From: Vectrevirus T145P2
Sequence record: OZ035747.1
DNA length: 45,051 nt
Direction: 5' to 3' (one strand)
Every line of letters begins with the position of its first letter. Within the stretch, counting starts at the first letter, position 1. The notes beneath the pieces were generated by a model. It made no database searches and was not told the origin of the DNA. It worked only from the letters and a program-made list of their open reading frames with translations. Both the position numbers and the translations under genes were made by a program. Shown here piece after piece: positions 331-44,893 of the stretch.

Positions 331-774
331 ATGCATAGATGGTGTGAATCTCAAGGTTATACCATCTTACCTTCTGGTGTCATCCTTTCAAAGGGTGGCA
401 CCCCTCTCAAACCATTCAAGGCGGGTAGGGGTTATTTAGCAGTTAAAATTAAAAATAAAGAAGGTAAATGGCGTAATGTCTATGTTCATCAATTAGTGGC
501 TTATAAGTATTTACCTAAAACTAATAATGAAGTAAACCACAAAGACGGCGATAAGCACAACAATGATGTTAGCAACTTGGAGTGGGTAACAAGAAGCGAG
601 AATAACTATTTAAAATGCAATGGAAATGATAGGAGTGCCTTAAATAGCTATTTAGCAAGATTAAAAGATTGCTTCTTGCAAGGTAAGGGTGTAGCAGAAA
701 CCGCTAGACTTACTGGTAAAAGTGAACCAAGAGTTTCTTCTCTCTTTAAGGAGTGGCGAAATGGCAAAGGCTAG
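331..774 (+). CDS. HNH homing endonuclease with C-terminal HTH-like region
   Basis: ATG 331 after GAGGAG; motif EVNHKDGDKHNNDVSNLEWVTRSEN typical of HNH_3 nucleases; gene visibly AT-rich relative to neighbours; overlaps large terminase start by 14 nt. Confidence 0.8.
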   Translation: MHRWCESQGYTILPSGVILSKGGTPLKPFKAGRGYLAVKIKNKEGKWRNVYVHQLVAYKYLPKTNNEVNHKDGDKHNNDVSNLEWVTRSENNYLKCNGNDRSALNSYLARLKDCFLQGKGVAETARLTGKSEPRVSSLFKEWRNGKG

Positions 775-2659
775 AGAATCACAGGCAGAGGCATTAAAGC
801 GGTGGGAAAACCTTAAAGAACTACAAGACACTTTTAAATATACAGCGGAAGGTTTGCTTCTCTTTGCAGATACAGTTATTCATAACTTAATTGCAGGCAA
901 CCCTCATCTGATTCGTATGCAGGCGGATATCTTGAAGTTCCTATTTTACGGACACAAGTACCGCCTCATCGAAGCGCCTCGTGGTATCGCTAAGACAACA
1001 CTATCAGCAATCTATACGGTATTCCGTATTATTCATGAACCGCATAAGCGTATCATGGTTGTGTCCCAAAACGCCAAGCGAGCAGAGGAAATCGCAGGTT
1101 GGGTAGTTAAAATCTTCCGTGGCTTAGACTTTCTTGAGTTTATGCTGCCGGATATCTACGCTGGGGACCGTGCATCCGTTAAGGCGTTTGAGATTCATTA
1201 CACCCTACGTGGTAGTGATAAGTCTCCTTCTGTATCCTGTTACTCAATCGAAGCAGGTATGCAGGGTGCTCGTGCTGATATTATTCTAGCGGATGACGTA
1301 GAGTCGATGCAGAATGCTCGTACGGCAGCGGGCCGTGCCTTGCTTGAGGAACTGACTAAGGAGTTTGAATCTATCAACCAGTTTGGGGATATCATTTACC
1401 TTGGTACACCTCAGAACGTAAACTCTATCTACAACAACCTACCTGCTCGTGGTTACTCTGTTCGTATCTGGACTGCGCGTTACCCTTCAGTAGAGCAAGA
1501 GCAATGTTATGGCGACTTCCTTGCACCTATGATTGTGCAGGATATGAAGGACAACCCAGCACTGCGCTCAGGGTACGGGTTGGATGGTAATAGTGGTGCA
1601 CCTTGTGCCCCTGAAATGTATGATGATGAAGTCCTGATTGAGAAGGAAATCTCTCAGGGTGCTGCTAAGTTCCAGCTTCAGTTCATGCTTAACACTCGCA
1701 TGATGGATGCTGACAGATACCCATTACGCCTGAACAATCTAATCTTCACCTCGTTTGGTACAGAGGAAGTCCCTGTGATGCCTACGTGGAGTAATGATTC
1801 CATAAACATCATTGGTGATGCACCTAAGTATGGTAACAAGCCTACGGATTTCATGTACAGACCTGTAGCTCGCCCATACGAATGGGGTGCTGTCTCCCGC
1901 AAGATTATGTATATTGACCCTGCGGGTGGCGGTAAGAATGGGGATGAGACGGGTGTGGCTATCGTATTCCTGCACGGCACATTCATTTACGTGTATCAGT
2001 GCTTCGGTGTGCCGGGTGGATACCGCGAATCGTCCCTGAATCGCATTGTGCAGGCCGCAAAGCAGGCGGGTGTTAAAGAGGTATTCATTGAGAAGAACTT
2101 TGGTCATGGCGCGTTTGAGGCGGTAATTAAGCCGTACTTTGAACGAGAGTGGCCTGTAACGCTGGAAGAGGATTACGCCACCGGACAGAAAGAGTTGCGT
2201 ATCATTGAGACGCTGGAGCCGCTCATGGCAGCTCATAGGCTTATCTTCAATACAGAGATGGTGAAGTCAGACTTTGAGTCGGTACAGCACTACCCGCTTG
2301 AACTACGCATGTCCTACAGTCTTTTCAATCAAATGTCGAACATAACGATTGAGAAGAACAGCCTCCGGCACGATGACCGCCTAGACGCCCTGTATGGCGC
2401 TATACGGCAATTAACTTCTCAGATAGACTATGACGAGGTTACACGGATTAATCGCCTCAGAGCGCAGGAGATGCGCGATTACATCCATGCTATGAACACA
2501 CCTCATCTACGCAGGGCAATGCTATATGGAGATTACGGTACTGAGCGAAGAGTGACCAACACTTCCGTAGCGATGCAGCAGCGAGTTTACGGGCAGAACT
2601 ACCGAAATAAATCGGCAAGCAGAAATACACTTTCTGCAAGGATTTCAAGGACTTATTAA
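761..2659 (+). CDS. terminase large subunit (T7 gp19-like)
   Basis: AAGGAG then ATG 761; 632 aa; ATPase region RGIAKTTL...ILADDVESM and nuclease region DPAGGGKNGDETGVAIV. Confidence 0.93.
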   Translation: MAKARESQAEALKRWENLKELQDTFKYTAEGLLLFADTVIHNLIAGNPHLIRMQADILKFLFYGHKYRLIEAPRGIAKTTLSAIYTVFRIIHEPHKRIMVVSQNAKRAEEIAGWVVKIFRGLDFLEFMLPDIYAGDRASVKAFEIHYTLRGSDKSPSVSCYSIEAGMQGARADIILADDVESMQNARTAAGRALLEELTKEFESINQFGDIIYLGTPQNVNSIYNNLPARGYSVRIWTARYPSVEQEQCYGDFLAPMIVQDMKDNPALRSGYGLDGNSGAPCAPEMYDDEVLIEKEISQGAAKFQLQFMLNTRMMDADRYPLRLNNLIFTSFGTEEVPVMPTWSNDSINIIGDAPKYGNKPTDFMYRPVARPYEWGAVSRKIMYIDPAGGGKNGDETGVAIVFLHGTFIYVYQCFGVPGGYRESSLNRIVQAAKQAGVKEVFIEKNFGHGAFEAVIKPYFEREWPVTLEEDYATGQKELRIIETLEPLMAAHRLIFNTEMVKSDFESVQHYPLELRMSYSLFNQMSNITIEKNSLRHDDRLDALYGAIRQLTSQIDYDEVTRINRLRAQEMRDYIHAMNTPHLRRAMLYGDYGTERRVTNTSVAMQQRVYGQNYRNKSASRNTLSARISRTY

Positions 2660-4351: not shown

Positions 4352-4430
4352 GTAAGATAGCGCCGTTCTTTTGAACGGCCTATTACTAGCCAATCTTCAT
4401 AGGGAGGGTTGGGAAGTAATAGGAGGTTTA

Positions 4431-5870
4431 ATGGCTAATATTACCAAACCTGTCACAACTGGTATTATACATGAAGGAAGGCTGCTATCAGATTATCTAA
4501 AACAAGCATGGGATAACACCTTACACGCTGATAACTACTTTGTTAGTGTTAAAGACTTTGGCGCTAAGGGTGATGGCTCTGCTGATGATACTGCTGCATT
4601 CAAAGCTGCACTTGCTTCTGGTAAGAATGTATATATCCCTGTAGGTATTTATATAATTAGTGAGACTTTGTATTTTAAGAATCAGGTTATAAAAGGGGGC
4701 GGAATAGCACCTATTCCGAGTCTTGGTACAATCCTTGCAATCTCACACAGTGAGCCTGCATTGAAATATGATGTAAGTGCAGGTTACTCTATGGGTGGTT
4801 ATTTAGGTGGGTTCTTCATAGATTATGGAGAGAACAAACCAGATAACTATGCAGGCAGAAAAGGCATAGATCTAGGTGATGCCGACCAACAAGCATGGCC
4901 TTCTCAATTTATCATTGAGAACATCATTGTCCGTGGTGCATACTTTGGTTTGCATGATGAAACAGGAGCATTCCAATACTCAATGCGCAATGTGGTTGCT
5001 ATCAATTGCTGGGAGGGGTTCCGTAAGTTCACTGGAACTACAGTCCTTATGGATACATGCTATGCGCTTAATTGCTATCAAGCATATAGACTGGCTAATG
5101 TTTATAATATGACAATGAATAACTGCGCCATGGATGGATGTAATGATATCCAAGGTTTACAGGCATTTGATATTACAAACTGCAAAGGTCTTGTGATAAA
5201 TGGCATGTATAGTGAGAATTGTGAGATCCATCATAGCGGTAATGCTTCTATATTTATTCATGGAGATTCTACAGTAACAATCAACGGTTATACCTTACAC
5301 TCGCATAATGTCGTTGTTGATCCAGCATCTGGAAGTGAAGAAGCATACTTTCTTAGAGCGCACGACAGCTCTAGGGTCAATGTAGATGGAATCTTCTTCG
5401 GTGAGAACCTTAAATCTACTAGTATCTTCACCTACCCAATTATGGCCTCTGGTGAGTCTAGAATTAAGCTAGGAACTACAGCACTTAAGGCATGGGTCGG
5501 TGCTAAGGGTGGTGCATCTATGGCTGCTGTTGAAGATAGTCTCATTGAATATGACAATACCGTATTTAACCCATCACTTACTGTAGGTTGGTGCAGTAAT
5601 AATGGTGTTGTAGCTAAAGGGACACTAGTTGTAAACACAACATTAGAACCTAATGCAGATTTAAATGCAGGAACTATACAATTAGTTGGTGACTATAAAC
5701 CAAATAAAGGTGATGTTCTTACATATGGTTCTACTTTCGATGTTCAATCATGTGCTATTATTCTGAAGCCACAAGGTGATAATAGTTGTAATGTTTACAT
5801 TAAAAACCTAAGTGCAGGTAGTAGTGTTACACTTAACGGAATATTGCACGTACAGGCAATTCGTAGGTAA
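4431..5870 (+). CDS. tailspike 1: beta-helix polysaccharide depolymerase/lyase-like protein (possibly K5-type lyase)
   Basis: AGGAGG then ATG 4431; 479 aa; KDFGAKGDGSADDTAAFKAALASGKNVYIP start of pectate-lyase-like beta-helix; repeated N-x-C turns; lacks T7 gp17-type N-terminal domain. Confidence 0.75.
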   Translation: MANITKPVTTGIIHEGRLLSDYLKQAWDNTLHADNYFVSVKDFGAKGDGSADDTAAFKAALASGKNVYIPVGIYIISETLYFKNQVIKGGGIAPIPSLGTILAISHSEPALKYDVSAGYSMGGYLGGFFIDYGENKPDNYAGRKGIDLGDADQQAWPSQFIIENIIVRGAYFGLHDETGAFQYSMRNVVAINCWEGFRKFTGTTVLMDTCYALNCYQAYRLANVYNMTMNNCAMDGCNDIQGLQAFDITNCKGLVINGMYSENCEIHHSGNASIFIHGDSTVTINGYTLHSHNVVVDPASGSEEAYFLRAHDSSRVNVDGIFFGENLKSTSIFTYPIMASGESRIKLGTTALKAWVGAKGGASMAAVEDSLIEYDNTVFNPSLTVGWCSNNGVVAKGTLVVNTTLEPNADLNAGTIQLVGDYKPNKGDVLTYGSTFDVQSCAIILKPQGDNSCNVYIKNLSAGSSVTLNGILHVQAIRR

Positions 5871-5899: not shown

Positions 5900-5953
5900 G
5901 CGCAACTTTTCTTAAAGGTTATCATGATGGTAGCCTTTCAGAAAGGAGGTTAC

Positions 5954-8389
5954 ATGATTCAAAGACTAGGTTCTTCATTAGTTAAATTCAAGAGTAAAAT
6001 AGCAGGTGCAATCTGGCGTAACTTGGATGACAAGCTCACCGAGGTTGTATCGCTTAAAGATTTTGGAGCCAAAGGTGATGGTAAGACAAACGACCAAGAT
6101 GCAGTAAATGCAGCGATGGCTTCAGGTAAGAGAATTGACGGTGCTGGTGCTACTTACAAAGTATCATCTTTACCTGATATGGAGCGATTCTATAACACCC
6201 GCTTCGTATGGGAACGTTTAGCAGGTCAACCTCTTTACTATGTGAGTAAAGGTTTTATCAATGGTGAACTATATAAAATCACGGATAACCCTTATTACAA
6301 TGCTTGGCCTCAAGACAAAGCGTTTGTATATGAGAACGTGATATATGCACCTTACATGGGTAGTGACCGTCATGGTGTTAGTCGTCTGCATGTATCATGG
6401 GTTAAGTCTGGTGACGATGGTCAAACATGGTCTACTCCAGAGTGGTTAACTGATCTGCATCCAGATTACCCTACAGTGAACTATCATTGTATGAGCATGG
6501 GTGTATGTCGCAACCGTCTGTTTGCCATGATTGAAACACGTACTTTAGCCAATAACGCACTAACCAATTGTGCATTGTGGGATCGTCCTATGTCTCGTAG
6601 TCTGCACCTTACTGGTGGTATCACTAAGGCTGCAAATCAGCAATATGCAACAATACATGTACCAGATCACGGATTATTCGTGGGCGATTTTGTTAACTTC
6701 TCTAATTCTGCGGTAACAGGTGTATCAGGTGATATGACTGTTGCAACGGTAATAGATAAGGACAACTTCACGGTTCTTACACCTAACCAGCAGACTTCAG
6801 ATTTGAATAACGCTGGAAAGAGTTGGCACATGGGTACTTCTTTCCATAAGTCTCCATGGCGTAAGACAGATCTTGGTCTAATCCCTAGTGTCACAGAGGT
6901 GCATAGCTTTGCTACTATTGATAACAATGGCTTTGTTATGGGATATCATCAAGGTGATGTAGCTCCACGAGAAGTTGGTCTTTTCTACTTCCCTGATGCT
7001 TTCAATAGCCCATCTAATTATGTTCGTCGTCAGATACCATCTGAGTATGAACCAGATGCGTCAGAGCCATGCATCAAGTACTATGACGGTGTATTATACC
7101 TTATCACTCGTGGCACTCGTGGTGACAGACTTGGAAGCTCTTTGCATCGTAGTAGAGATATAGGTCAGACTTGGGAGTCACTGAGATTTCCACATAATGT
7201 TCATCATACTACCTTACCTTTTGCTAAAGTAGGAGATGACCTTATTATGTTTGGTTCAGAACGTGCAGAAAATGAATGGGAAGCAGGTGCACCAGATGAC
7301 CGTTACAGGGCATCTTATCCTCGTACCTTCTATGCACGATTGAATGTAAACAATTGGAATGCAGATGATATTGAATGGGTTAACATCACAGACCAAATCT
7401 ATCAAGGGGACATTGTGAACTCTAGTGTAGGTGTAGGTTCTGTTGTAGTTAAAGACAGCTACATTTACTATATCTTTGGTGGTGAAAATCATTTCAACCC
7501 AATGACTTATGGTGACAACAAAAATAAAGACCCATTTAAAGGTCATGGACACCCTACTGATATATACTGCTATAAGATGCAGATTGCAAATGACAATCGT
7601 GTATCTCGTAAGTTTACATATGGTGCAACTCCTGGTCAAGCTATACCTACTTTCATGGGTACTGATGGGGTACGAAATATCCCTGCACCTTTGTATTTCT
7701 CAGATAACATTGTTACAGAGGATACTAAAGTTGGACACTTAACAATTAAAGCAAGCACAAGTTCCAATATACGATCTGAAGCGCAGATGGAAGGTGAATA
7801 TGGCTTTATTGGCAAGTCTGTTCCAAAGGATAACCCAACTGGTCAACGTTTGATTATTTGTGGTGGAGAAGAGACTTCGTCCTCTTCAGGTGCACAGATA
7901 ACTTTGCACGGCTCTAATTCAAGTAATGCTAATCGTATCACTTATAACGGAAATGAGCACCTATTCCAAGGTGCACCAATCATGCCTGCTGTAGATAACC
8001 AGTTTGCTGCTGGTGGGCCTAGTAACCGATTCACTACCATCTACCTAGGTAGTGACCCTGTTACAACTTCAGATGCTGAACACAAGTACGGCATCTCTAG
8101 TATTAATACCAAGGTGTTAAAGGCTTGGGGTAGAGTTGGTTTTAAACAGTATGGTTTGAATAGTGAAGCAGAGAGGAATCTTGATAGCATACACTTCGGT
8201 GTCTTGGCTCAGGATATTGTAGCTGCTTTTGAAGCTGAAGGATTGGATGCCATTAAGTATGGAATTGTGTCCTTCGAAGAAGGTAGGTACGGTGTGAGAT
8301 ATAGTGAAGTTCTAATCCTAGAGGCTGCCTACACTCGCCATCGTCTTGATAAATTAGAGGAGATGTACGCCGCTAATAAAATCAGTTAA
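5954..8389 (+). CDS. tailspike 2: endo-N-acetylneuraminidase (endosialidase) with C-terminal intramolecular chaperone domain
   Basis: AAAGGAGG then ATG 5954; 811 aa; C-terminal SDAEHKYGISS...LDSIHFGVLAQD region resembles the self-cleaving chaperone domain of K1-phage endosialidases (from memory). Confidence 0.85.
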   Translation: MIQRLGSSLVKFKSKIAGAIWRNLDDKLTEVVSLKDFGAKGDGKTNDQDAVNAAMASGKRIDGAGATYKVSSLPDMERFYNTRFVWERLAGQPLYYVSKGFINGELYKITDNPYYNAWPQDKAFVYENVIYAPYMGSDRHGVSRLHVSWVKSGDDGQTWSTPEWLTDLHPDYPTVNYHCMSMGVCRNRLFAMIETRTLANNALTNCALWDRPMSRSLHLTGGITKAANQQYATIHVPDHGLFVGDFVNFSNSAVTGVSGDMTVATVIDKDNFTVLTPNQQTSDLNNAGKSWHMGTSFHKSPWRKTDLGLIPSVTEVHSFATIDNNGFVMGYHQGDVAPREVGLFYFPDAFNSPSNYVRRQIPSEYEPDASEPCIKYYDGVLYLITRGTRGDRLGSSLHRSRDIGQTWESLRFPHNVHHTTLPFAKVGDDLIMFGSERAENEWEAGAPDDRYRASYPRTFYARLNVNNWNADDIEWVNITDQIYQGDIVNSSVGVGSVVVKDSYIYYIFGGENHFNPMTYGDNKNKDPFKGHGHPTDIYCYKMQIANDNRVSRKFTYGATPGQAIPTFMGTDGVRNIPAPLYFSDNIVTEDTKVGHLTIKASTSSNIRSEAQMEGEYGFIGKSVPKDNPTGQRLIICGGEETSSSSGAQITLHGSNSSNANRITYNGNEHLFQGAPIMPAVDNQFAAGGPSNRFTTIYLGSDPVTTSDAEHKYGISSINTKVLKAWGRVGFKQYGLNSEAERNLDSIHFGVLAQDIVAAFEAEGLDAIKYGIVSFEEGRYGVRYSEVLILEAAYTRHRLDKLEEMYAANKIS

Positions 8390-24565: not shown

Positions 24566-24624
24566 TAATAGCAGGTGTAGCCTCTGTTAGTCCTAGTTGA
24601 CTATCACGCTCACCTCATCTAATG

Positions 24625-24657
24625 CCCTGTCTGCCTTAGTGTAGGCAGGGTCTTTTG
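24625..24657 (+). terminator. intrinsic terminator
   Basis: CCCTGTCTGC / GTAGGCAGGG 10-bp stem (with G-U pairs) followed by TCTTTTG; sequence-related to terminator at 33679. Confidence 0.7.
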
Positions 24658-24682: not shown

Positions 24683-24973
24683 ATGCCGACTATTGAAGAT
24701 CGTTTCCAGATTCACGCATCTTACTCGCCTATGCTTAGAGGTCATCTTATTACCATTAGATTAGATTATGAGTTGTATCTTGTAGATTATTTATATACAG
24801 ACTATGACTGCCAACGTAACATGGTGGGACCGATGAGGTGGGCGGCTGAGTGGGTGCGCGAGCACGTGCTGAAGGAGTGGCCTACATGCGACCAAACTTC
24901 GACTTCGGAGCTACAGTATCGGAAGACAATAATCTCATCCTGTGGCCGACTGAAGGTAATCGAATCGCTTTAA
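24683..24973 (+). CDS. hypothetical protein (96 aa) overlapping the exonuclease gene start
   Basis: GGAGA then ATG 24683; 3-prime 88 nt overlap exonuclease in another frame. Confidence 0.4.
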   Translation: MPTIEDRFQIHASYSPMLRGHLITIRLDYELYLVDYLYTDYDCQRNMVGPMRWAAEWVREHVLKEWPTCDQTSTSELQYRKTIISSCGRLKVIESL

Positions 24974-25914
24974 TAGATGCCGATATGTTGCCTTACATCG
25001 TCGCGTATACAATCAGCGACATGACTTATGTACGAGCCACAACTCGTGTTAAGTCAGGACAAGTCCCATCAATCAAAGATACGCCTGAGTGTAAGCAAGC
25101 GTGTGACCGTGTGAACTCCTTGCTTAACTCTTGGGTGTATGCAGCAGAATGTGATGCAGCTAAGTTATTCATGACGAAATCAGAAGCTAACTTCCGTGTC
25201 CGCCTAGCATTCACCAAGCCTTATAAAGGTCAACGTAAGACCGAGAAGCCTCCATTCTTCTATGAATTGCGAGAGCATCTCTTAGAGGTTCACGGTGCAA
25301 TCTTGGCAGATGGAGAGGAAGCAGACGACCTCATGAGTATCGCACAATGGGACAGCCACCGCCGCTTCCAGCAAGATACAGGTAACGAGTTCCCTATCGG
25401 TAGTCCAGAGCATAAAGCATTCTCTGATACTTGCATCGTTTCCTTGGATAAGGATTTGATGATTGTTCCCGGTTGGCATCTACAGCCGGGTCAAGAGAAG
25501 AAGTGGGTAGAGCCTATGGGCTGGCTTGAGCTACGCCGTAAGGCTAATGGGCAAGTCAAAGATCTAAAAGGTGCTGGCCTCATGTTCCACTATGCACAGA
25601 TGATTATCGGTGATGATATTGATAACTATGCTGGCATACCAGGTCGTGGTGCTAAATATGCCTATGATCTTCTCAAAGGTTGTAAGACAGAGAAAGAATT
25701 GTACATGGCAGTGCTTGGTGCTTACAAAGCTAAGTTCGGTCATGGACAGGTTAAGATTAAGAATTACCGAGGTGGTTATCGGGTGGGCAAAGCCTTTGAC
25801 CTTATGCTTGAATGCGGTCGCTTAGCTCACATGGCTAGGTTCAAAGGTGATATATGGCGAGCCGATAAGAACCCAATCTTGTGGGGAGATGATGCGGAAT
25901 GGTTAGCAAATTAA
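24886..25914 (+). CDS. 5-prime to 3-prime exonuclease (T7 gp6-like, FEN family)
   Basis: AAGGAG then ATG 24886; 342 aa; ALIDADMLPY, DDLMSIAQ, SLDKDLMIVP, GDDIDNYAGIPG parallel T7 gp6 motifs. Confidence 0.9.
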   Translation: MRPNFDFGATVSEDNNLILWPTEGNRIALIDADMLPYIVAYTISDMTYVRATTRVKSGQVPSIKDTPECKQACDRVNSLLNSWVYAAECDAAKLFMTKSEANFRVRLAFTKPYKGQRKTEKPPFFYELREHLLEVHGAILADGEEADDLMSIAQWDSHRRFQQDTGNEFPIGSPEHKAFSDTCIVSLDKDLMIVPGWHLQPGQEKKWVEPMGWLELRRKANGQVKDLKGAGLMFHYAQMIIGDDIDNYAGIPGRGAKYAYDLLKGCKTEKELYMAVLGAYKAKFGHGQVKIKNYRGGYRVGKAFDLMLECGRLAHMARFKGDIWRADKNPILWGDDAEWLAN

Positions 25915-26312
25915 AAGCATCGGAGGTGGCAGCTTATAAGAAGGAATTGCTAGATAAGCAAGGATGGAAATGCCCTCTGTGTGGTGGCAGTCTCAAAGCT
26001 GTCACACCTGTAAACCGTGTACTTGACCATGACCATGAGACAGGATTCTGCCGTGCTGTTGTATGCCGAGGTTGCAATGGTGCGGAAGGGAAGATTAAGG
26101 GTGTTATCTCTGGTTATGGCAAGGCGGGTAATAACCGTTACTTCCAGCTTCAATGGTTAGAGAGATTGTACGAATACTGGAAGTTACATAGTACGCCTCA
26201 GACAGATAAGTTATATCACAAACATCAAACGGAGGCAGAGAAGCGCGAGGCTAAGAACCGTAAGGCACGCCTTGCTTATGCAAGAAAGAAGAAGGAGGTT
26301 AAAGTTGGGTAA
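25899..26312 (+). CDS. recombination endonuclease VII-like Holliday junction resolvase
   Basis: 137 aa; CPLCGG...DHDHETG...CRGCNGAEG zinc/His-Me motif. Confidence 0.8.
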   Translation: MVSKLKASEVAAYKKELLDKQGWKCPLCGGSLKAVTPVNRVLDHDHETGFCRAVVCRGCNGAEGKIKGVISGYGKAGNNRYFQLQWLERLYEYWKLHSTPQTDKLYHKHQTEAEKREAKNRKARLAYARKKKEVKVG

Positions 26313-27312
26313 GCTTCGCAGCTTGTACAAAGACTCCGAGGTACTTGATGCAATCGAGCAAGCTACCGACGAGAAAGGTAATGTTAACTACAACGAGATG
26401 GCACGGGTATTATCGTGTCACCCTGTGGGTAAGAAGATTACCCGCCAGTTGGCTCGATACTGGCATGGTCAATTCAAGAAGACCAAGAAGAATGGTGATT
26501 ACTACCAGACTCTTCTGCAAGAGGATAAGCGTATCAAAGAAGAGCGTAAGCTCAGGACTCCTGACCGCTACGAGGATTTGGCTATTGTACCACTGCCTGA
26601 CTCGCCTCATCGAAGTGTACTGGTAATCCCTGACACTCATGCACCTTACGAGCACCCAGATACCTTAGAGTTTCTGGCAGCGGTGGCAGCACGTTACCGT
26701 CCAGACACTGTAGTTCATCTGGGTGATGAGGCAGATAAACATGCCTTATCGTTCCACGATTCAGACCCCAATCTGGATAGTGCTGGCATGGAGTTAGAGA
26801 AGGCCCGTGTCTTTATGCATAAATTACACAAGATGTTTCCTGTGATGCGCCTGTGTCATTCTAATCACGGCTCTATGCACTTCCGTAAGGCAAGCGCTAA
26901 GGGTATCCCTGTGCAATACTTGCGTACCTATCGAGAAGTCTTCTTTCCGCATGGGGGTGGCGACCAGTGGGATTGGCAGCATACACACGTTCTTGAGTTG
27001 CCGAATGGTGAACAGGTTGCATTTAAGCATCAACCAGCAGGCTCAGTCTTAGCAGATGCAGCGCATGAGCGCATGAACTTAGTGTGCGGTCACTTGCATG
27101 GTAAGATGTCGGTGGAGTATGCACGTAACACACATGAACAGTATTGGGCTGTGCAGGGCGGCTGTTTGATTGATGAGTCATCTCGTGCATTTGCCTATGG
27201 TCGTGAGTCCAAATACAAGCCAGCATTAGGTTGTGTGGTTATTCTGGAGGGTGTGCCGCACATTGTCCCGATGCAGACCAATAGTGACAATCGCTGGATT
27301 GGTAAGATTTAG
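26272..27312 (+). CDS. calcineurin-like metallophosphoesterase (start uncertain: TTG 26272, ATG 26278 or TTG 26305 with strong SD)
   Basis: VIPDTHAPYEHPD ... HLGDEADKH ... GHLHGK metal-binding motifs. Confidence 0.8.
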   Translation: MLMQERRRRLKLGKLRSLYKDSEVLDAIEQATDEKGNVNYNEMARVLSCHPVGKKITRQLARYWHGQFKKTKKNGDYYQTLLQEDKRIKEERKLRTPDRYEDLAIVPLPDSPHRSVLVIPDTHAPYEHPDTLEFLAAVAARYRPDTVVHLGDEADKHALSFHDSDPNLDSAGMELEKARVFMHKLHKMFPVMRLCHSNHGSMHFRKASAKGIPVQYLRTYREVFFPHGGGDQWDWQHTHVLELPNGEQVAFKHQPAGSVLADAAHERMNLVCGHLHGKMSVEYARNTHEQYWAVQGGCLIDESSRAFAYGRESKYKPALGCVVILEGVPHIVPMQTNSDNRWIGKI

Positions 27313-27329
27313 TTGACACTATAGAACAA
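27307..27329 (+). promoter_or_regulatory. phage RNAP promoter, SP6-like subclass
   Basis: ATTTAGTTGACACTATAGAACAA, one mismatch from the SP6 promoter ATTTAGGTGACACTATAGAA. Confidence 0.75.
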
Positions 27330-27380
27330 AGGGTAGGTATTAGCTTACCCTTGATTGTATAGTGAATGGAGGAATTAATT

Positions 27381-27851
27381 ATGTCAAAGATTTATATTGG
27401 CGAATACGTCGTACGCCGTGCAGCTTACCGAGATGCCATCTGGAATAAACTGTGTGAAAGCCTAGACAAGAAACCAGATGGGGTATTCAAAGTATCCCGT
27501 GCAGAACCTAATTATAACTCTATTATGTTAGAAGGTGTTGAGAAGCGCGAATGGTATGCACCTTACTTCAAGGTTGTTGACTCATTGCAAGATGAAGATC
27601 CTAGCACGTTGGACAACAATATGGTTACTAAGCCTAAGCACTATGAGTTCTTCGATGGGGTAGAGGCAATCACTATCATTGCTCGTAGTATGACCGAGAA
27701 GCAATTTGCTGGATATTGCATGGGTAACGCTTTGAAGTATCGTCTGCGTGCAGGTAAGAAATTCAATACTGAAGAAGACCTGAAGAAAGCAGACTACTAT
27801 AAAGAGTTATTCCAGAAACATCGTCACGAATGTATTGATGAGGATATTTGA
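27381..27851 (+). CDS. DUF3310-like protein (family of T7 gp1.7 nucleotide kinase)
   Basis: AGGAGG then ATG 27381; KPKHYEFFDGVEAITII...QFAGYCMGNALKYRLRAGKK motif. Confidence 0.55.
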   Translation: MSKIYIGEYVVRRAAYRDAIWNKLCESLDKKPDGVFKVSRAEPNYNSIMLEGVEKREWYAPYFKVVDSLQDEDPSTLDNNMVTKPKHYEFFDGVEAITIIARSMTEKQFAGYCMGNALKYRLRAGKKFNTEEDLKKADYYKELFQKHRHECIDEDI

Positions 27852-27852
27852 T

Positions 27853-27969
27853 ATGACTTGTCCTAATTGTGGAAGTGAAGAAACAGAACATGTAGTTATG
27901 TCAGATACTTATCATTTCTATTTCTGTCATAACTGCGACACTACCATTGAAGAGGAAGAAGCTGTATGA
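27853..27969 (+). CDS. small zinc-ribbon protein (38 aa)
   Basis: CPNCG ... CHNCD pair of CxxC; overlaps neighbours. Confidence 0.4.
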   Translation: MTCPNCGSEETEHVVMSDTYHFYFCHNCDTTIEEEEAV

Positions 27970-28913
27970 ATATCTTTGAGTTCCTAGGTCTTCCAGAAGA
28001 TCACCGCAATCACCCATTCATGCTAGTGAAACATCGCGGTGAAGTCCCTGAGAAGAAACTTACTTTTCCATGTTATGGACAGGTGAAACGAGATGGTATC
28101 TTTTCTGCTGTTGTTGTTCGCACTGATGGTGTCGTTGGCGTTTTTGGTCGCACTGGTAAGAAACTGGCAAACACTGAAGTCCTCGAACAAACATTTGCTA
28201 CCTTTCCGGTTGGCATTTATCTTGGTGAGCTTCAGTCTATGGCCGTTGATATCTACCTTGAAGCTCTATCAGGGGTGGTAAATCCTAATCGTACAGAGCC
28301 GCTTGACTTTATAGGCCAGCAGATTAAAGACAACCTGTATATCGACTTCTTCGATATGTTAACCATTAAGGCATTCCATGATGGATTCACTGATGTTTCT
28401 TATCTCAAACGTTACGATGCTTTACATCGTCGCATCGGCGCTCATCTTAGCGGGTACAACGCTATCCTTCCTATTACTCCTTGCCATAATGAGCGAGAAG
28501 TTGAAGCGTTTGCGCAAGAGCAAATAGACGCAGGCCGAGAGGGTGCTGTGTTTAAACTGGACTGTGATTATGAAGCAGGCCACAAAGGTTATCGTCAGAC
28601 TAAAGAAGTCCGTAAGGTAACTTATGACCTTACTTGTATTGGCTTTGAAGAAGGCAAAGGTAAGTACAAAGGTAAGGTAGCTAACCTCATTTTCAAATGG
28701 AAAGGAGGCAAGACAATCAAAGCTATGTTAGGTAAAGGGTGGACTCATGCAGATGCAGAACAGATGTTCCACGATATTAAACATGGTGGACGATTGAATG
28801 TCATTGGTAAAATCTTTGAAGTAAAAGGTCTTCAGGATTCAAGCAAGGGCAACATTCGTCTGCCCAAAGCGGGAGAATTAAGACATGACAAAGATGAACC
28901 AGATTTCTTTTGA
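27966..28913 (+). CDS. ATP-dependent DNA ligase
   Basis: 315 aa; motif I KRDG; C-terminal RLPKAGELRHDKD resembles ligase motif VI. Confidence 0.85.
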   Translation: MNIFEFLGLPEDHRNHPFMLVKHRGEVPEKKLTFPCYGQVKRDGIFSAVVVRTDGVVGVFGRTGKKLANTEVLEQTFATFPVGIYLGELQSMAVDIYLEALSGVVNPNRTEPLDFIGQQIKDNLYIDFFDMLTIKAFHDGFTDVSYLKRYDALHRRIGAHLSGYNAILPITPCHNEREVEAFAQEQIDAGREGAVFKLDCDYEAGHKGYRQTKEVRKVTYDLTCIGFEEGKGKYKGKVANLIFKWKGGKTIKAMLGKGWTHADAEQMFHDIKHGGRLNVIGKIFEVKGLQDSSKGNIRLPKAGELRHDKDEPDFF

Positions 28914-29100
28914 TAGCATGAAGGCGACTCGTGCAGTTGAGGTAGCAGAAGCTATCTTTGAAACTTTATCCTGTGGCATGGAATTGCCGTATACTTTACT
29001 GGCTGATGCAGAAGAGCTTGGTCTTTCTGTAGAAGCTATCCAAGAGAAGGTTGACGAATTATATGGTACAGACGAAGAAGAAACCGACGATTTCATTTGA
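28885..29100 (+). CDS. acidic hypothetical protein (71 aa)
   Basis: GGGAGA then ATG 28885. Confidence 0.5.
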   Translation: MTKMNQISFDSMKATRAVEVAEAIFETLSCGMELPYTLLADAEELGLSVEAIQEKVDELYGTDEEETDDFI

Positions 29101-29233
29101 AGGAATGGAAATGCTTGAGATGATTCTCAAGCCCTCTTCTCCTAAGGTGACTAAGACTCATGAAGAGTTAATCGTTGATGAAGTTAAGCGTTACATCATG
29201 GATTGTGTCAGAGCACAACTGGTGGTCCAATGA
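29063..29233 (+). CDS. hypothetical protein (start uncertain)
   Basis: Track ORF 29051..29233 uses TTG; ATG candidates at 29063 and 29105. Confidence 0.35.
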   Translation: MVQTKKKPTISFEGMEMLEMILKPSSPKVTKTHEELIVDEVKRYIMDCVRAQLVVQ

Positions 29234-29691
29234 TACGTCCAGCTTCCTTCCTAGATATTCCTGAGATTATAAACCTTGGGAATAAATATGTGGAAGAGGA
29301 AGTCAAGGTTGTAGCCCACCACTCAGCCTCATGGAATGCAGAACAAAGTGCACATAACCTTTGTGCATCTCTTAGTAGAGAAGATTTATTCCTATGGGTT
29401 GCTGTAGATGAAGGGCAGATTGTAGGGTTCCTGTGGGCTGGCTATCACGAGTTGGCCCCTTGGACACCTGTAAGAGTTGCCTCTGACATTCTCTTTTATA
29501 TTATACCAGAGAGGCGAGGAACACTACTTGGTATGCGTCTCATCAAAGCCCTAAAGCAATGGGCTAGTGATAATGAATGCTCTGAGGTTCGCCTGTCTAT
29601 CGCCTCTGGTATTAATGAAGAACGTGTCGGACGTATGTATAAGCGACTTGGCTTTGAACCGTTTGGCACTGTGTATAACCTGAAGTTCTAA
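29230..29691 (+). CDS. GNAT-family N-acetyltransferase
   Basis: ATG 29230; IVGFLWAG ... RRGTLLGMRLIKAL ... RMYKRLGFEP acetyl-CoA-binding core. Confidence 0.7.
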   Translation: MIRPASFLDIPEIINLGNKYVEEEVKVVAHHSASWNAEQSAHNLCASLSREDLFLWVAVDEGQIVGFLWAGYHELAPWTPVRVASDILFYIIPERRGTLLGMRLIKALKQWASDNECSEVRLSIASGINEERVGRMYKRLGFEPFGTVYNLKF

Positions 29692-43600: not shown

Positions 43601-43931
43601 AGGGTTGGCCTTTGGTGCAATGGGTATGATGAGTACAACTGCTGTATTTAGTCTAGGTGGAGATTTCTTAGGTGGCCTAGGTGTTCTACCTTCTGAGTTA
43701 GTACAATCCCGTTATGAGGCTGGCTTTCAGACTAAGGGTTTGATAGACCAAATACCACTAGTAGGTGTTGGTCAAGATGCATATCGTTTAGCAGATTCTA
43801 TAACTAGATACGCAGAGGGTGATACAGAAGGTGTAGATGTGGCACGTAGGGCTTTACGCTTAGTGCCTCTAGCTAATGTAATAGGAATCCAGAACGCATT
43901 GCGTTATGGCTTAGATGAACTGGAGGATTAA
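40623..43931 (+). CDS. internal virion protein C (gp16-like, 1102 aa)
   Basis: Size and position; GGAGG upstream. Confidence 0.85.
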   Translation: MEQDIKTNWAGYVQSTPEPFSIEAAPVSAPTIRQRNELQEQVLEAKADADILGAVGAAFQNEWLAFGGKRWYDRATADFTPQPDFEIQPEQREALRFKYGTDMMQTITEGVRSEDELNFRIQNADEDLERNKRIAQAGWVGSVATIGAAVLDPVGWVASIPTGGAAKVGLVGRAVRGAIAAGVSNAAIESVLVQGDMTRDLDDIMVALGSGMAMGGVIGAVARGRATKLSEQGDDRAASIVRSADAGDRYVRAVADDSIGAMRVKGEEVLTEGAFDVSSKGEDLLKTLQREGNAIDMTPRRWAGTLSALGTVVHSSQDASVRGLGARLFESPQGLGMQKASASLMQNTNLNRLKSADMNRFNDGFDLWLKENNINPVSGHTNSHYVQQYNEKVWEAVRIGMDESTPKSIRMAAEGQQAMYREALALRQRSGEAGFEKVKADDKYMPDIFDSMKARRQFSMHDKEDIIELFSRAYQNGSRKVPKEVADDIARAQVNRVADATLTGQLSFEKAMSGQTKAEYEALMRKAGFSDEEIEKMVEALDNKETRDNISNRAKMSLGLDVTQEYNGIRIRDFMNTNVEELTDNYMKEAAGGAALARQGFSTYQAALNAIDLVERNARNAAKDTKAHAQFEAESAKIRQSEPDYKKAQEKIEELKKRLKLKEKDEAAGLAIDEEIRQMREGLRLIMGKSIDSNPQDLSTKMLRRGRDITGVLRLGQMGFAQLGELANFMGEFGIAATTMALGKQFRFTSKALRNGDGFFRDKNLAEVERMVGYIGEDNWLTTKGARPDEFGDVTTVRGMMAHFDQSMNSIRRAQTNLSLFRMAQGSLERMTNRQIALSFIDHLEGKKIIPQKKLEELGLTQEFMTNLQKHYDANSKGSGLLGFDTMPYDMGETLANAIRRKSGLIIQRNFIGDEGIWMNKALGKTFAQLKSFSLVSGEKQFGRGIRHDKIGLAKKTAYGFALGSIVYAAKAYVNSIGREDQDEYLEEKLSPKGLAFGAMGMMSTTAVFSLGGDFLGGLGVLPSELVQSRYEAGFQTKGLIDQIPLVGVGQDAYRLADSITRYAEGDTEGVDVARRALRLVPLANVIGIQNALRYGLDELED

Positions 43932-44893
43932 TGAGTTATACTTTCACAGAACATATAGCCAACGGTACGCAAGTAACCTATCCCTTTAGCTTTGCTGGTA
44001 GGGATAAAGGTTATCTTCGTGCCTCAGATGTGATAGTGGAGTCTCTTCAAGGTAACACTTGGATTGAGGTTACATCTGGCTGGCAACTAACTGGCACGCA
44101 CCAGATTACTTTTGATGTAGCACCAGTTGCAGGTTTGAAGTTCCGTATTCGAAGGGAAGTACAAAAGGAGTATCCATACGCTGAGTTTGACCGTGGTGTT
44201 ACCTTGGATATGAAGTCTTTAAATGGTTCTTTCATTCATATACTGGAGATTACACAGGAGTTACTTGACGGGTTTTATCCAGAAGGATACTTCATTAAAC
44301 AGAATGTAAGCTGGGGCGGCAATAAGATTACTGATTTGGCTGATGGCACAAATCCTGGAGATGCAGTAAATAAAGGGCAGCTTGATGCCATCGACAAGAA
44401 GCATACAGATTGGAACGCCAAACAGGACATTGAGATTGCTGGCCTTAAGGCTGGTATGACCTCTGGTATTGCGCACAGAACTGTTCCTTGGTACACGATA
44501 GCCCAAGGTGGTGAGATTTCCGTAAAACCACCTTATGAATTTCAAGATGCACTAGTTTTCCTTAATGGGGTATTGCAGCACCAAATTGTAGGCGCATACT
44601 CTATAAGCAACAACACTATCACTTTCGCAGAGCCGCTTGTGGCGGGTACAGAGGTGTATGTGCTGATTGGTAGTCGTGTGGCTACATCTGAACCTAATAT
44701 TCAGTTAGAGTTGAACTTTGACTTAGTAGAAGGACAACAAGTAGTACAGATTGGCTCTGCATTTAAGTACATTGAGGTCTACCTTGATGGATTATTACAA
44801 CCTAAACTTGCTTATCAGGTAGACGGTGACATTGTTACTTTCTCAGAAAGAGTACCAGAATGCCGGATGACTGCTAAGATTATCACAGCATAA
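43931..44893 (+). CDS. tail fibre adaptor protein (T7 gp17 N-terminal domain-like, no receptor-binding domain)
   Basis: 320 aa; resembles the N-terminal tail-attachment part of T7 gp17 only. Confidence 0.85.
   Translation: MSYTFTEHIANGTQVTYPFSFAGRDKGYLRASDVIVESLQGNTWIEVTSGWQLTGTHQITFDVAPVAGLKFRIRREVQKEYPYAEFDRGVTLDMKSLNGSFIHILEITQELLDGFYPEGYFIKQNVSWGGNKITDLADGTNPGDAVNKGQLDAIDKKHTDWNAKQDIEIAGLKAGMTSGIAHRTVPWYTIAQGGEISVKPPYEFQDALVFLNGVLQHQIVGAYSISNNTITFAEPLVAGTEVYVLIGSRVATSEPNIQLELNFDLVEGQQVVQIGSAFKYIEVYLDGLLQPKLAYQVDGDIVTFSERVPECRMTAKIITA

Follow-up and report, generated by a model that had tools for sequence, protein, structure and literature searches.

When a phage carries genes for a phosphoesterase, a nucleotide-kinase-like protein, a zinc ribbon and a ligase side by side, do these four genes act as one set? 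The question is raised by the genome of Vectrevirus T145P2 (sequence record OZ035747.1; its whole stretch of 45,051 nucleotides is called here the window), in which a calcineurin-like metallophosphoesterase, a DUF3310 protein related to gp1.7 of phage T7, a putative zinc ribbon of 38 amino acids (aa) and an ATP-dependent ligase are encoded in succession (Table 1). A preliminary description of the window had proposed that they form either a set for healing and sealing nucleic-acid ends or a nucleotide-salvage set. It had named the four genes correctly: Pfam and phrog matches were obtained for the phosphoesterase, the DUF3310 protein and the ligase, and an open reading frame (ORF) with the CxxC...CxxC pattern is present. 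Support for the enzyme genes and for the promoter is well above what chance would give. The block was said to run from 26272; the genes are there, but the phosphoesterase starts at TTG 26305 and the DUF3310 protein most likely at ATG 27381. We report here that the phosphoesterase and ligase genes are stable and that the genes between them are exchanged freely among close relatives. The block probably closes the DNA-metabolism (class II) region as a run of independent replication and nucleotide genes rather than as a dedicated machine.

Gene order in related loci

Together, 80 viral loci encoding relatives of the phosphoesterase and a number of annotated phages made up 89 loci, which fall into 46 clusters at 90% phosphoesterase identity. 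Their ORFs were scored with profiles made from the proteins identified in the analysis, five families being profiled, and co-occurrence was judged on local 13-kb loci. In the 89 loci the exonuclease gene is followed by those of endonuclease VII and the phosphoesterase, then by a variable slot and the ligase gene. The exonuclease is the first gene of a conserved exonuclease/endonuclease VII/phosphoesterase run: the EXO profile finds an exonuclease upstream in most loci, and in 37 of the 42 informative clusters the gene immediately before the phosphoesterase is that of endonuclease VII, mostly with the exonuclease ahead of it. A ligase gene is found at most 2.5 kb downstream of the phosphoesterase in 24 of 43 clusters.

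The slot is occupied by a P-loop deoxynucleoside monophosphate (dNMP) kinase (phrog_139) in 17 clusters, by a MazG deoxynucleoside triphosphate (dNTP) pyrophosphohydrolase in 9 and by a DUF3310 protein in 4, and 15 clusters have none of the profiled families there. Counting dNMP kinases of either fold and MazG, a nucleotide-pool enzyme lies downstream of the phosphoesterase in 28 of 43 clusters. Exchange of the slot gene is seen between close relatives. The phosphoesterases of five loci (L024-L028) are 87-88% identical to the T145P2 protein, yet their slot holds the P-loop kinase; in three others (L034-L036), with 77% identity, it holds MazG, and both kinase types occur within one 90% cluster. 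Vibrio phages have an additional deoxyribosyltransferase-like gene. Aeromonas phage Ahp1 has, between the phosphoesterase and a P-loop dNMP kinase, a HAD-family protein resembling the Pnkp phosphatase (gp26, L002 4867-5418; PF25109, 64 bits), annotated as "polynucleotide kinase" and devoid of a kinase domain. KP34-like Klebsiella phages keep the phosphoesterase, with neither kinase nor ligase adjoining. In none of the 89 loci was the slot gene replaced by a polynucleotide kinase.

The promoter and hairpin leader of the slot

An SP6-like promoter had been placed at 27307, ahead of the block. It lies exactly there, but it overlaps the stop codon of the phosphoesterase gene and therefore serves the kinase and ligase genes only. 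With up to three mismatches, the promoter core has 20 matches in the genome against 6.2 expected, and no shuffle gave 20. Eleven copies on the + strand align to a single consensus, ATTTACTGGACACTATAGAAGA, with the core GACACTATAGA invariant in all 11. Relative to this consensus, the promoter of the slot has two upstream specificity positions changed (ACTGG to AGTTG) and starts its transcript with GAACAA in place of GAAGA; it has 1 mismatch with the classical SP6 promoter. Since the off-consensus form is preserved at the same site in SP6 and other relatives, the site may be a promoter of deliberately different strength.

The predicted transcript begins with a stem-loop. Its 62-nucleotide (nt) leader has a minimum free energy of -15.5 kcal/mol (z -2.8), and the hairpin is conserved among relatives, with a compensatory change from T-A to C-G. 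It contains an insertion of ~32 nt in SP6 and in two further loci (L011, L018), and is kept ahead of the P-loop kinase gene in L024. Promoter, hairpin and ribosome-binding leader are conserved whether a DUF3310 or a P-loop kinase gene comes next; the MazG locus L034 aligns only poorly over this part. The hairpin could be a target of RNase III or could stabilise the 5' end, and it provides exchanged genes with a conserved flank.

The DUF3310 protein in the slot

The DUF3310 protein matches PF11753 with 88.4 bits (cut-off 24); an alternative start at ATG 27366 would lengthen it from 156 to 161 aa. Its last 84 residues are 61% identical to residues 111-194 of T7 gp1.7, which are the DUF3310 domain of both proteins, and a P-loop is absent from both. 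In the AlphaFold model (predicted local distance difference test, pLDDT, 81), a KOW/SH3-like β-barrel (residues ~1-66) is connected through a disordered linker with a three-helix DUF3310 domain at the C-terminus (residues ~82-156), whereas gp1.7 has a Cys-rich N-terminus. The gene order of T7 differs as well: class II starts there with gene 1.7 in the vicinity of the ligase gene, 1.3, and T7 is not known to encode a phosphoesterase. A side observation in the T7 locus (L006 1907-2167) is that gp1.6 matches the Pfam family BC10 ("bladder cancer-related protein") at E 8e-24, an odd family assignment.

At least as summarised in PMC11897194 and PMC7693777, gp1.7 phosphorylates dTMP and dGMP. From the shared domain and the repeated replacement by genes of dNMP-kinase families, we infer that the T145P2 protein is likewise a dTMP/dGMP kinase. 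Nothing suggests that it is a polynucleotide kinase, the part it would have played in end healing: its kin is a mononucleotide kinase, and the replacements at the same site are dNMP kinases.

The exchange extends into the gene. In otherwise near-identical phages (L001, L011, L015-L023, L037) its N-terminal half (27381-27620) is mosaic, and the C-terminal domain is almost invariant. The N-terminal variants are several divergent small β-barrels, with or without a CxxC...CxC knuckle, and that of L023 includes a T7-like CIACLEKD(D/E)RYPHTC segment; three of these N-termini, as well as the N-terminal region of the phosphoesterase, had no match in Pfam at E <= 5. Some phages miss this half, and have proteins of 94-97 aa or a domain-only ORF of 76 aa after a stop codon. 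Tran et al. reportedly found in 2012 that a short form of gp1.7, without the first ~40 residues, is also active. T7 gp1.7 was reported as an activator of the defence protein Avs5 (PMC11897194), so that the N-terminal variability could reflect immune evasion.

The small ORF in front of the ligase gene

The stop codon of the zinc-ribbon ORF overlaps the ATG of the ligase gene (ATGA), which suggests translational coupling and nothing beyond it. Cysteines C3, C6, C25 and C28 are conserved in K1E, where the ORF is annotated, and in UTI89UKE2, and the three copies compared differ by 4 nt only. All Pfam and NCBIfam zinc-ribbon matches were below the curated cut-offs, and no similarity to T7 gp1.8 was detected by BLASTP. 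A tblastn search of the 89 other loci returned no copy, and a DNA search found the ORF in only 10 phage records, all of the K1E clade: it is a clade-specific insert of the K1E lineage. Elsewhere the same position holds an unrelated Cys-rich ORF of 41 aa (ACG-C91, L010 7534-7659) or, in other Vectreviruses, an ORF of 57-62 aa (phrog_15259, e.g. L001 7922-8095), and in SP6 nothing separates gene 23, the DUF3310 gene, from the ligase gene 24. All these small ORFs are served by the same ribosome-binding site, which belongs to the conserved 3' end of the DUF3310 coding sequence. Other Vectreviruses differ from T145P2 in this small ORF or in the N-terminal half of the DUF3310 protein.

The phosphoesterase and its relatives

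The phosphoesterase start at TTG is preferred because of its spacing from GGAGG and because it gives 335 aa, the length in homologues and in the RefSeq annotation; position 26272 would give 346 aa. The protein scores 22.1 bits with Pfam Metallophos (cut-off 21.5) and E 1.5e-105 with phrog_221. It consists of a helical N-terminal region of ~100 aa, a linker and a catalytic core (residues ~102-335) with the metal-binding motifs D110-x-H112, G140-D141-x-x-D144, N187-H188, H242 and G262-H263-x-H265. In 31 sequences none of these named residues varies, and an extra HALSFHDSDPNLDSAG segment that follows motif II is invariant too. A structure model (pLDDT 81) shows three to four N-terminal helices, the linker and a sandwich core. 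By motifs, profile score and α/β sandwich fold, the protein is a member of the calcineurin-like binuclear metallophosphoesterase superfamily (PF00149).

By fold, its closest relatives are minimal phosphodiesterases and members of nuclease type (PolD DP1, Mre11/SbcD). The end-healing phosphatase of Clostridium thermocellum Pnkp ranks 54th, no nearer than other superfamily members, and Foldseek against the PDB gave only generic matches of low TM (template modelling) score. The ranking therefore favours a phosphodiesterase, possibly a nuclease, and lends no specific support to an end-healing phosphatase. Single-sequence and profile searches of the PDB with the phosphoesterase and the DUF3310 protein gave no usable match, and the literature searched contained no solved structure and no published biochemistry for the phosphoesterase family. 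The preliminary description had held that the substrate cannot be fixed from sequence alone, and on this point it is correct as stated.

Membership in the ligase-associated metallophosphoesterases (PdeM, TIGR04123) was considered and rejected, with 18.8 bits against a cut-off of 150 and only residues 125-157 matched.

A full-library search with the phosphoesterase returned 1,705 clusters at E <= 0.001. Many relatives are ~235 aa long and match residues ~102-335 only, which marks the first ~100 residues as an extension added to a core that is widespread. Of ten long relatives, three have winged-helix or homeodomain-like helix-turn-helix (HTH) domains N-terminal to the core. When the phosphoesterase profile was compared with HTH-fused relatives by hhalign, the catalytic core alone was aligned, and an HTH in the T145P2 N-terminus is therefore a guess from secondary structure.

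Mycobacteriophage Pioneer gp53 (Cluster A) aligns over the whole core with all motifs (hhalign 94.7%, E 6e-8, ~22% identity), and its gene lies near those of NrdH and ribonucleotide reductase (RNR). Another Cluster A protein, gp48 of mycobacteriophage A10ZJ24, breaks down host DNA as a phosphodiesterase/DNase and is required for overcoming host defences (PMC12287305). The Cluster A proteins resemble the T145P2 enzyme in being phage-encoded cores (~235-255 aa) in a replication/nucleotide neighbourhood, but they have only ~22% identity to it and lack the N-terminal extension, and the DNase/counter-defence role belongs to the Cluster A member.

In at least five subfamilies of the Autographiviridae the phosphoesterase is a conserved part of the replication module. 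In a Nitrincola phage it lies between MazG and RNR, with an exonuclease upstream, and in Flavobacterium phage 11b it is near Erf. On an 85.6-kb viral contig that is not T7-like (L060 4163-6999), an ATP-dependent DNA ligase of 468 aa, an acyl-carrier-protein-like ORF of 83 aa and a full-length phosphoesterase adjoin; this is an independent ligase-phosphoesterase pairing with the order reversed. A metagenomic orthologue (P0121, 635 aa, 56% identity) has an intein-like insertion of ~300 aa exactly inside metal-binding motif II, bordered by ...NLGDE|CYPAD...VNGN|CDNHA.... Another relative, P0164, contains a LAGLIDADG domain.

The ligase

The ligase is of the minimal type and, as judged from its domains, is a DNA ligase with nucleotidyltransferase (NTase) and OB domains, not an Rnl-type RNA ligase. 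It matches PF01068 (26.2 bits, equal to the cut-off), PF14743 (38 versus 28) and phrog_114 (E 6.6e-71). KRDG is found at residues 41-44, and an EGAVFK motif IV aligns with the best solved relative, 9fzx (E 1.8e-7). T7 gp1.3 and the minimal ligases of Chlorella-virus type are likewise built of a nucleotidyltransferase and an OB domain, with a KxDG motif I and ~300-360 aa; no similarity to the T7 ligase was detected by BLASTP.

Genome context

The window comprises the whole genome, in permuted form, of a K1E/K1-5/SP6-like Vectrevirus, with every large ORF on the + strand. Positions 26000-29200 have 95-97% nt identity to K1E-type Vectreviruses (among them T145P2, UTI89UKE2 and K1E), and SP6 is related. 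SP6 genes 22-24, and K1E and K1-5 gene 22 with its neighbours (Molineuxvirinae, Autographiviridae), are the same genes in the same order, and the phosphoesterase has 94-99% protein identity to its counterparts of SP6, K1E and K1-5 type. In RefSeq the relatives are annotated, in order, with an exonuclease, endonuclease VII, a metallo-phosphoesterase, a nucleotide kinase "similar to T7 gp1.7", a small hypothetical protein, a DNA ligase, an acetyltransferase and a head-tail adaptor. The genes of the block are thus already annotated in deposited relatives and are not new. Their coordinates are collected in Table 1.

Table 1. Features of the window, in order of position.
Feature	Position	Strand	Remarks
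Large terminase gene	722-2659		near the beginning of the permuted genome
Two tailspike genes	4371-5870, 5924-8389		among the first genes of the permuted genome
RNA polymerase gene	at 12.7 kb		
5'-3' exonuclease (T7 gp6-like)	24850-25914	+	weak match to Pfam 5_3_exonuc; exonuclease in RefSeq relatives
Endonuclease VII, 137 aa	25899-26312	+	PF02945, 47.6 bits; 8-nt overlap with the phosphoesterase start
Metallophosphoesterase, 335 aa	26305-27312	+	TTG start; GGAGG (26294-26298) six bases before
Phage RNA-polymerase promoter ATTTAGTTGACACTATAGAACAA	27307-27329	+	predicted +1 is G 27324; core matched exactly
Stem-loop, 10 bp	27329-27352	+	arms AAGGGTAGGT / GCTTACCCTT; 5' end of the transcript, then ribosome-binding leader
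DUF3310/T7 gp1.7-like protein, 156 aa	27381-27851	+	ATG eight bases after GGAGG (27368-27372)
Zinc-ribbon ORF, 38 aa, CxxC...CxxC	27853-27969	+	ATG 27853; GAGGA (27840-27844) inside the 3' end of the DUF3310 gene
ATP-dependent DNA ligase, 315 aa	27966-28913	+	minimal NTase + OB type; motif I KRDG, Lys41
GNAT acetyltransferase	29203-29691		between the ligase and portal genes
Tail-fibre-family gene (phrog_2710)	43931-44893		last in the stretch

The pair of tailspike genes is reminiscent of the dual-specificity arrangement of K1-5. The position of the GNAT acetyltransferase gene is conserved in SP6-like, Vibrio and Pseudomonas Autographiviridae. The strongest terminator-like hairpin of the region (24624-24651; 11 bp, 6 G-C pairs, T-rich tail) lies upstream of the exonuclease gene and separates a phrog_4429 gene from a gene for a "DNA repair protein".

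Possible roles of the block

The block has a conserved backbone of exonuclease, endonuclease VII and phosphoesterase genes, after which come a promoter with a 5' hairpin that opens the variable slot, and then the ligase, acetyltransferase and portal genes; in T145P2 the DUF3310 gene and, behind it, the zinc-ribbon ORF occupy the slot. If the block is the end of the class II region, the ligase would close nicks in phage DNA and join Okazaki fragments, and the DUF3310 protein, like gp1.7, would phosphorylate dTMP and dGMP from host-DNA breakdown and so feed phage DNA synthesis; relatives would fill this role through an unrelated P-loop dNMP kinase, or have the MazG pyrophosphohydrolase in its place. 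The zinc ribbon would be an accessory small protein, translationally coupled to the ligase. As for the phosphoesterase, we would place it first, tentatively, as a binuclear-metal phosphodiesterase acting on DNA alongside the exonuclease and endonuclease VII, in host-DNA breakdown or in the processing of ends or flaps. The HTH fusions of distant relatives, the homology to the Pioneer and A10ZJ24 proteins and the DNA/nucleotide-gene neighbourhoods in unrelated phages count in favour of this assignment.

Several points weigh against this picture. Synteny is conserved overall in the Autographiviridae, which makes adjacency to the nucleases weak evidence of a common function. The best structural matches of the phosphoesterase include enzymes without a known physiological substrate, and in the metallophosphoesterase superfamily the fold does not fix the substrate. 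Its N-terminal region has no detectable similarity to HTH families in Pfam or by hhalign, and literature searches found no functional data on the SP6, K1-5 or KP34 phosphoesterase. The N-terminal ~75 residues of the DUF3310 protein fail to align with gp1.7, and some close relatives are the DUF3310 domain alone (76-97 aa); because only the C-terminal domain is common to both and the model resembles no known kinase fold, kinase activity is something we infer for it. Lastly, the ligase-phosphoesterase pairing of the unrelated contig hints at a link between the two enzymes, which we treat as coincidental.

The phosphoesterase could also belong to the nucleotide pool, acting on small substrates (oligonucleotides, 3'- or 2',3'-cyclic nucleotides, Ap4A, dNTPs) and passing its products to the kinase in a salvage pathway. 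The nucleotide-pool enzymes downstream in 28 of 43 clusters speak for such a pathway, as do the positions of the phosphoesterase gene between MazG and RNR in the Nitrincola phage and near NrdH and RNR in Pioneer. However, 15 clusters have none of the five profiled slot families and the KP34-like phages have no kinase nearby; the promoter divides the phosphoesterase from the slot gene, the HTH fusions of relatives point to DNA, and the only characterised phage relative, a remote one, is a DNase (PMC12287305). We consider a salvage function of the phosphoesterase unlikely. The salvage proposal of the preliminary description is supported for the slot gene.

The stretch from phosphoesterase to ligase might instead be a hot spot of the arms race with the host, in which a DNA-tethered phosphodiesterase cleans damaged or blocked ends for the ligase and the slot turns over, either through recognition of gp1.7-type proteins by host sensors such as Avs5 or through selection for different pool enzymes by dNTP-depleting defences; this we regard as improbable.

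For an end-healing and sealing set directed against host defence nucleases, the phosphoesterase would remove 3'-phosphates or 2',3'-cyclic phosphates, the DUF3310 protein would phosphorylate 5'-OH ends and the ligase would seal them, in parallel with T4 Pnkp/Rnl or bacterial Pnkp/Hen1. The Pnkp-phosphatase-like gene of Ahp1 adjoins the phosphoesterase, the ligase gene is close by in 24 of 43 clusters and adjacent in the unrelated contig, and a bacterial Exo-Lig-Lhr-Core-MPE repair cluster (MPE, metallophosphoesterase) is known (PMC7826289), which resembles the T145P2 block in having a binuclear metallophosphoesterase gene near those of an exonuclease and an ATP-dependent DNA ligase. Among the genes identified around the block (exonuclease, endonuclease VII, kinase, ligase, GNAT, portal) there is no Lhr-type helicase. 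The parts do not support the proposal, however: the DUF3310 protein is kin to a mononucleotide kinase, is without a P-loop and is swapped for dNMP kinases or MazG, never for a polynucleotide kinase; the ligase is of DNA type, not Rnl; the PdeM score is far below its cut-off; and the genes are not inherited together, with the zinc ribbon confined to 10 records. In contrast to C. thermocellum Pnkp, the T145P2 phosphoesterase is neither fused to a P-loop polynucleotide kinase nor encoded next to one, and an Rnl-type ligase and a Hen1 partner are absent. Such a set is very unlikely here.

To an equally small extent we would credit the view that the phosphoesterase degrades a host immune signalling nucleotide (cyclic oligonucleotides, cCMP/cUMP, gcADPR), a view that the preliminary description also raised and for which no support was obtained. 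The known anti-CBASS and anti-Pycsar nucleases have other folds (PMC9117128). The phosphoesterase gene is a stable and core-like component of the replication module in its at least five subfamilies, unlike a variable accessory gene, and the intein-like insertion of an orthologue is in keeping with a conserved enzyme of housekeeping type. PADLOC gave 0 matches for any of the four proteins, the phosphoesterase matched no anti-defence family, and no phage metallophosphoesterase with cyclic nucleotides as substrates came up in literature searches. Least credible of all is a protein phosphatase like that of lambda, modifying host or phage phosphoproteins, given that PPP enzymes rank under phosphodiesterase and nuclease members and that GDExDxH and SNHG stand in place of the PPP signatures GDxVDRG and GNHE.

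Significance

As first proposed, the finding matters little: the genes are known and annotated in a well-studied phage group, and the repair kit falls apart. The phosphoesterase family itself is widespread, with about 1,700 clusters at 50% identity. If the improbable arms-race reading were true, the N-terminal helical region of the phosphoesterase would be a DNA tether, and the phosphoesterase and ligase would be a phage analogue of the bacterial Exo-Lig-MPE cluster. What the locus offers in any case is one slot that is occupied, in different phages, by kinases of two unrelated folds or by MazG. This clean example of non-orthologous replacement supports a nucleotide-pool role of DUF3310 proteins.

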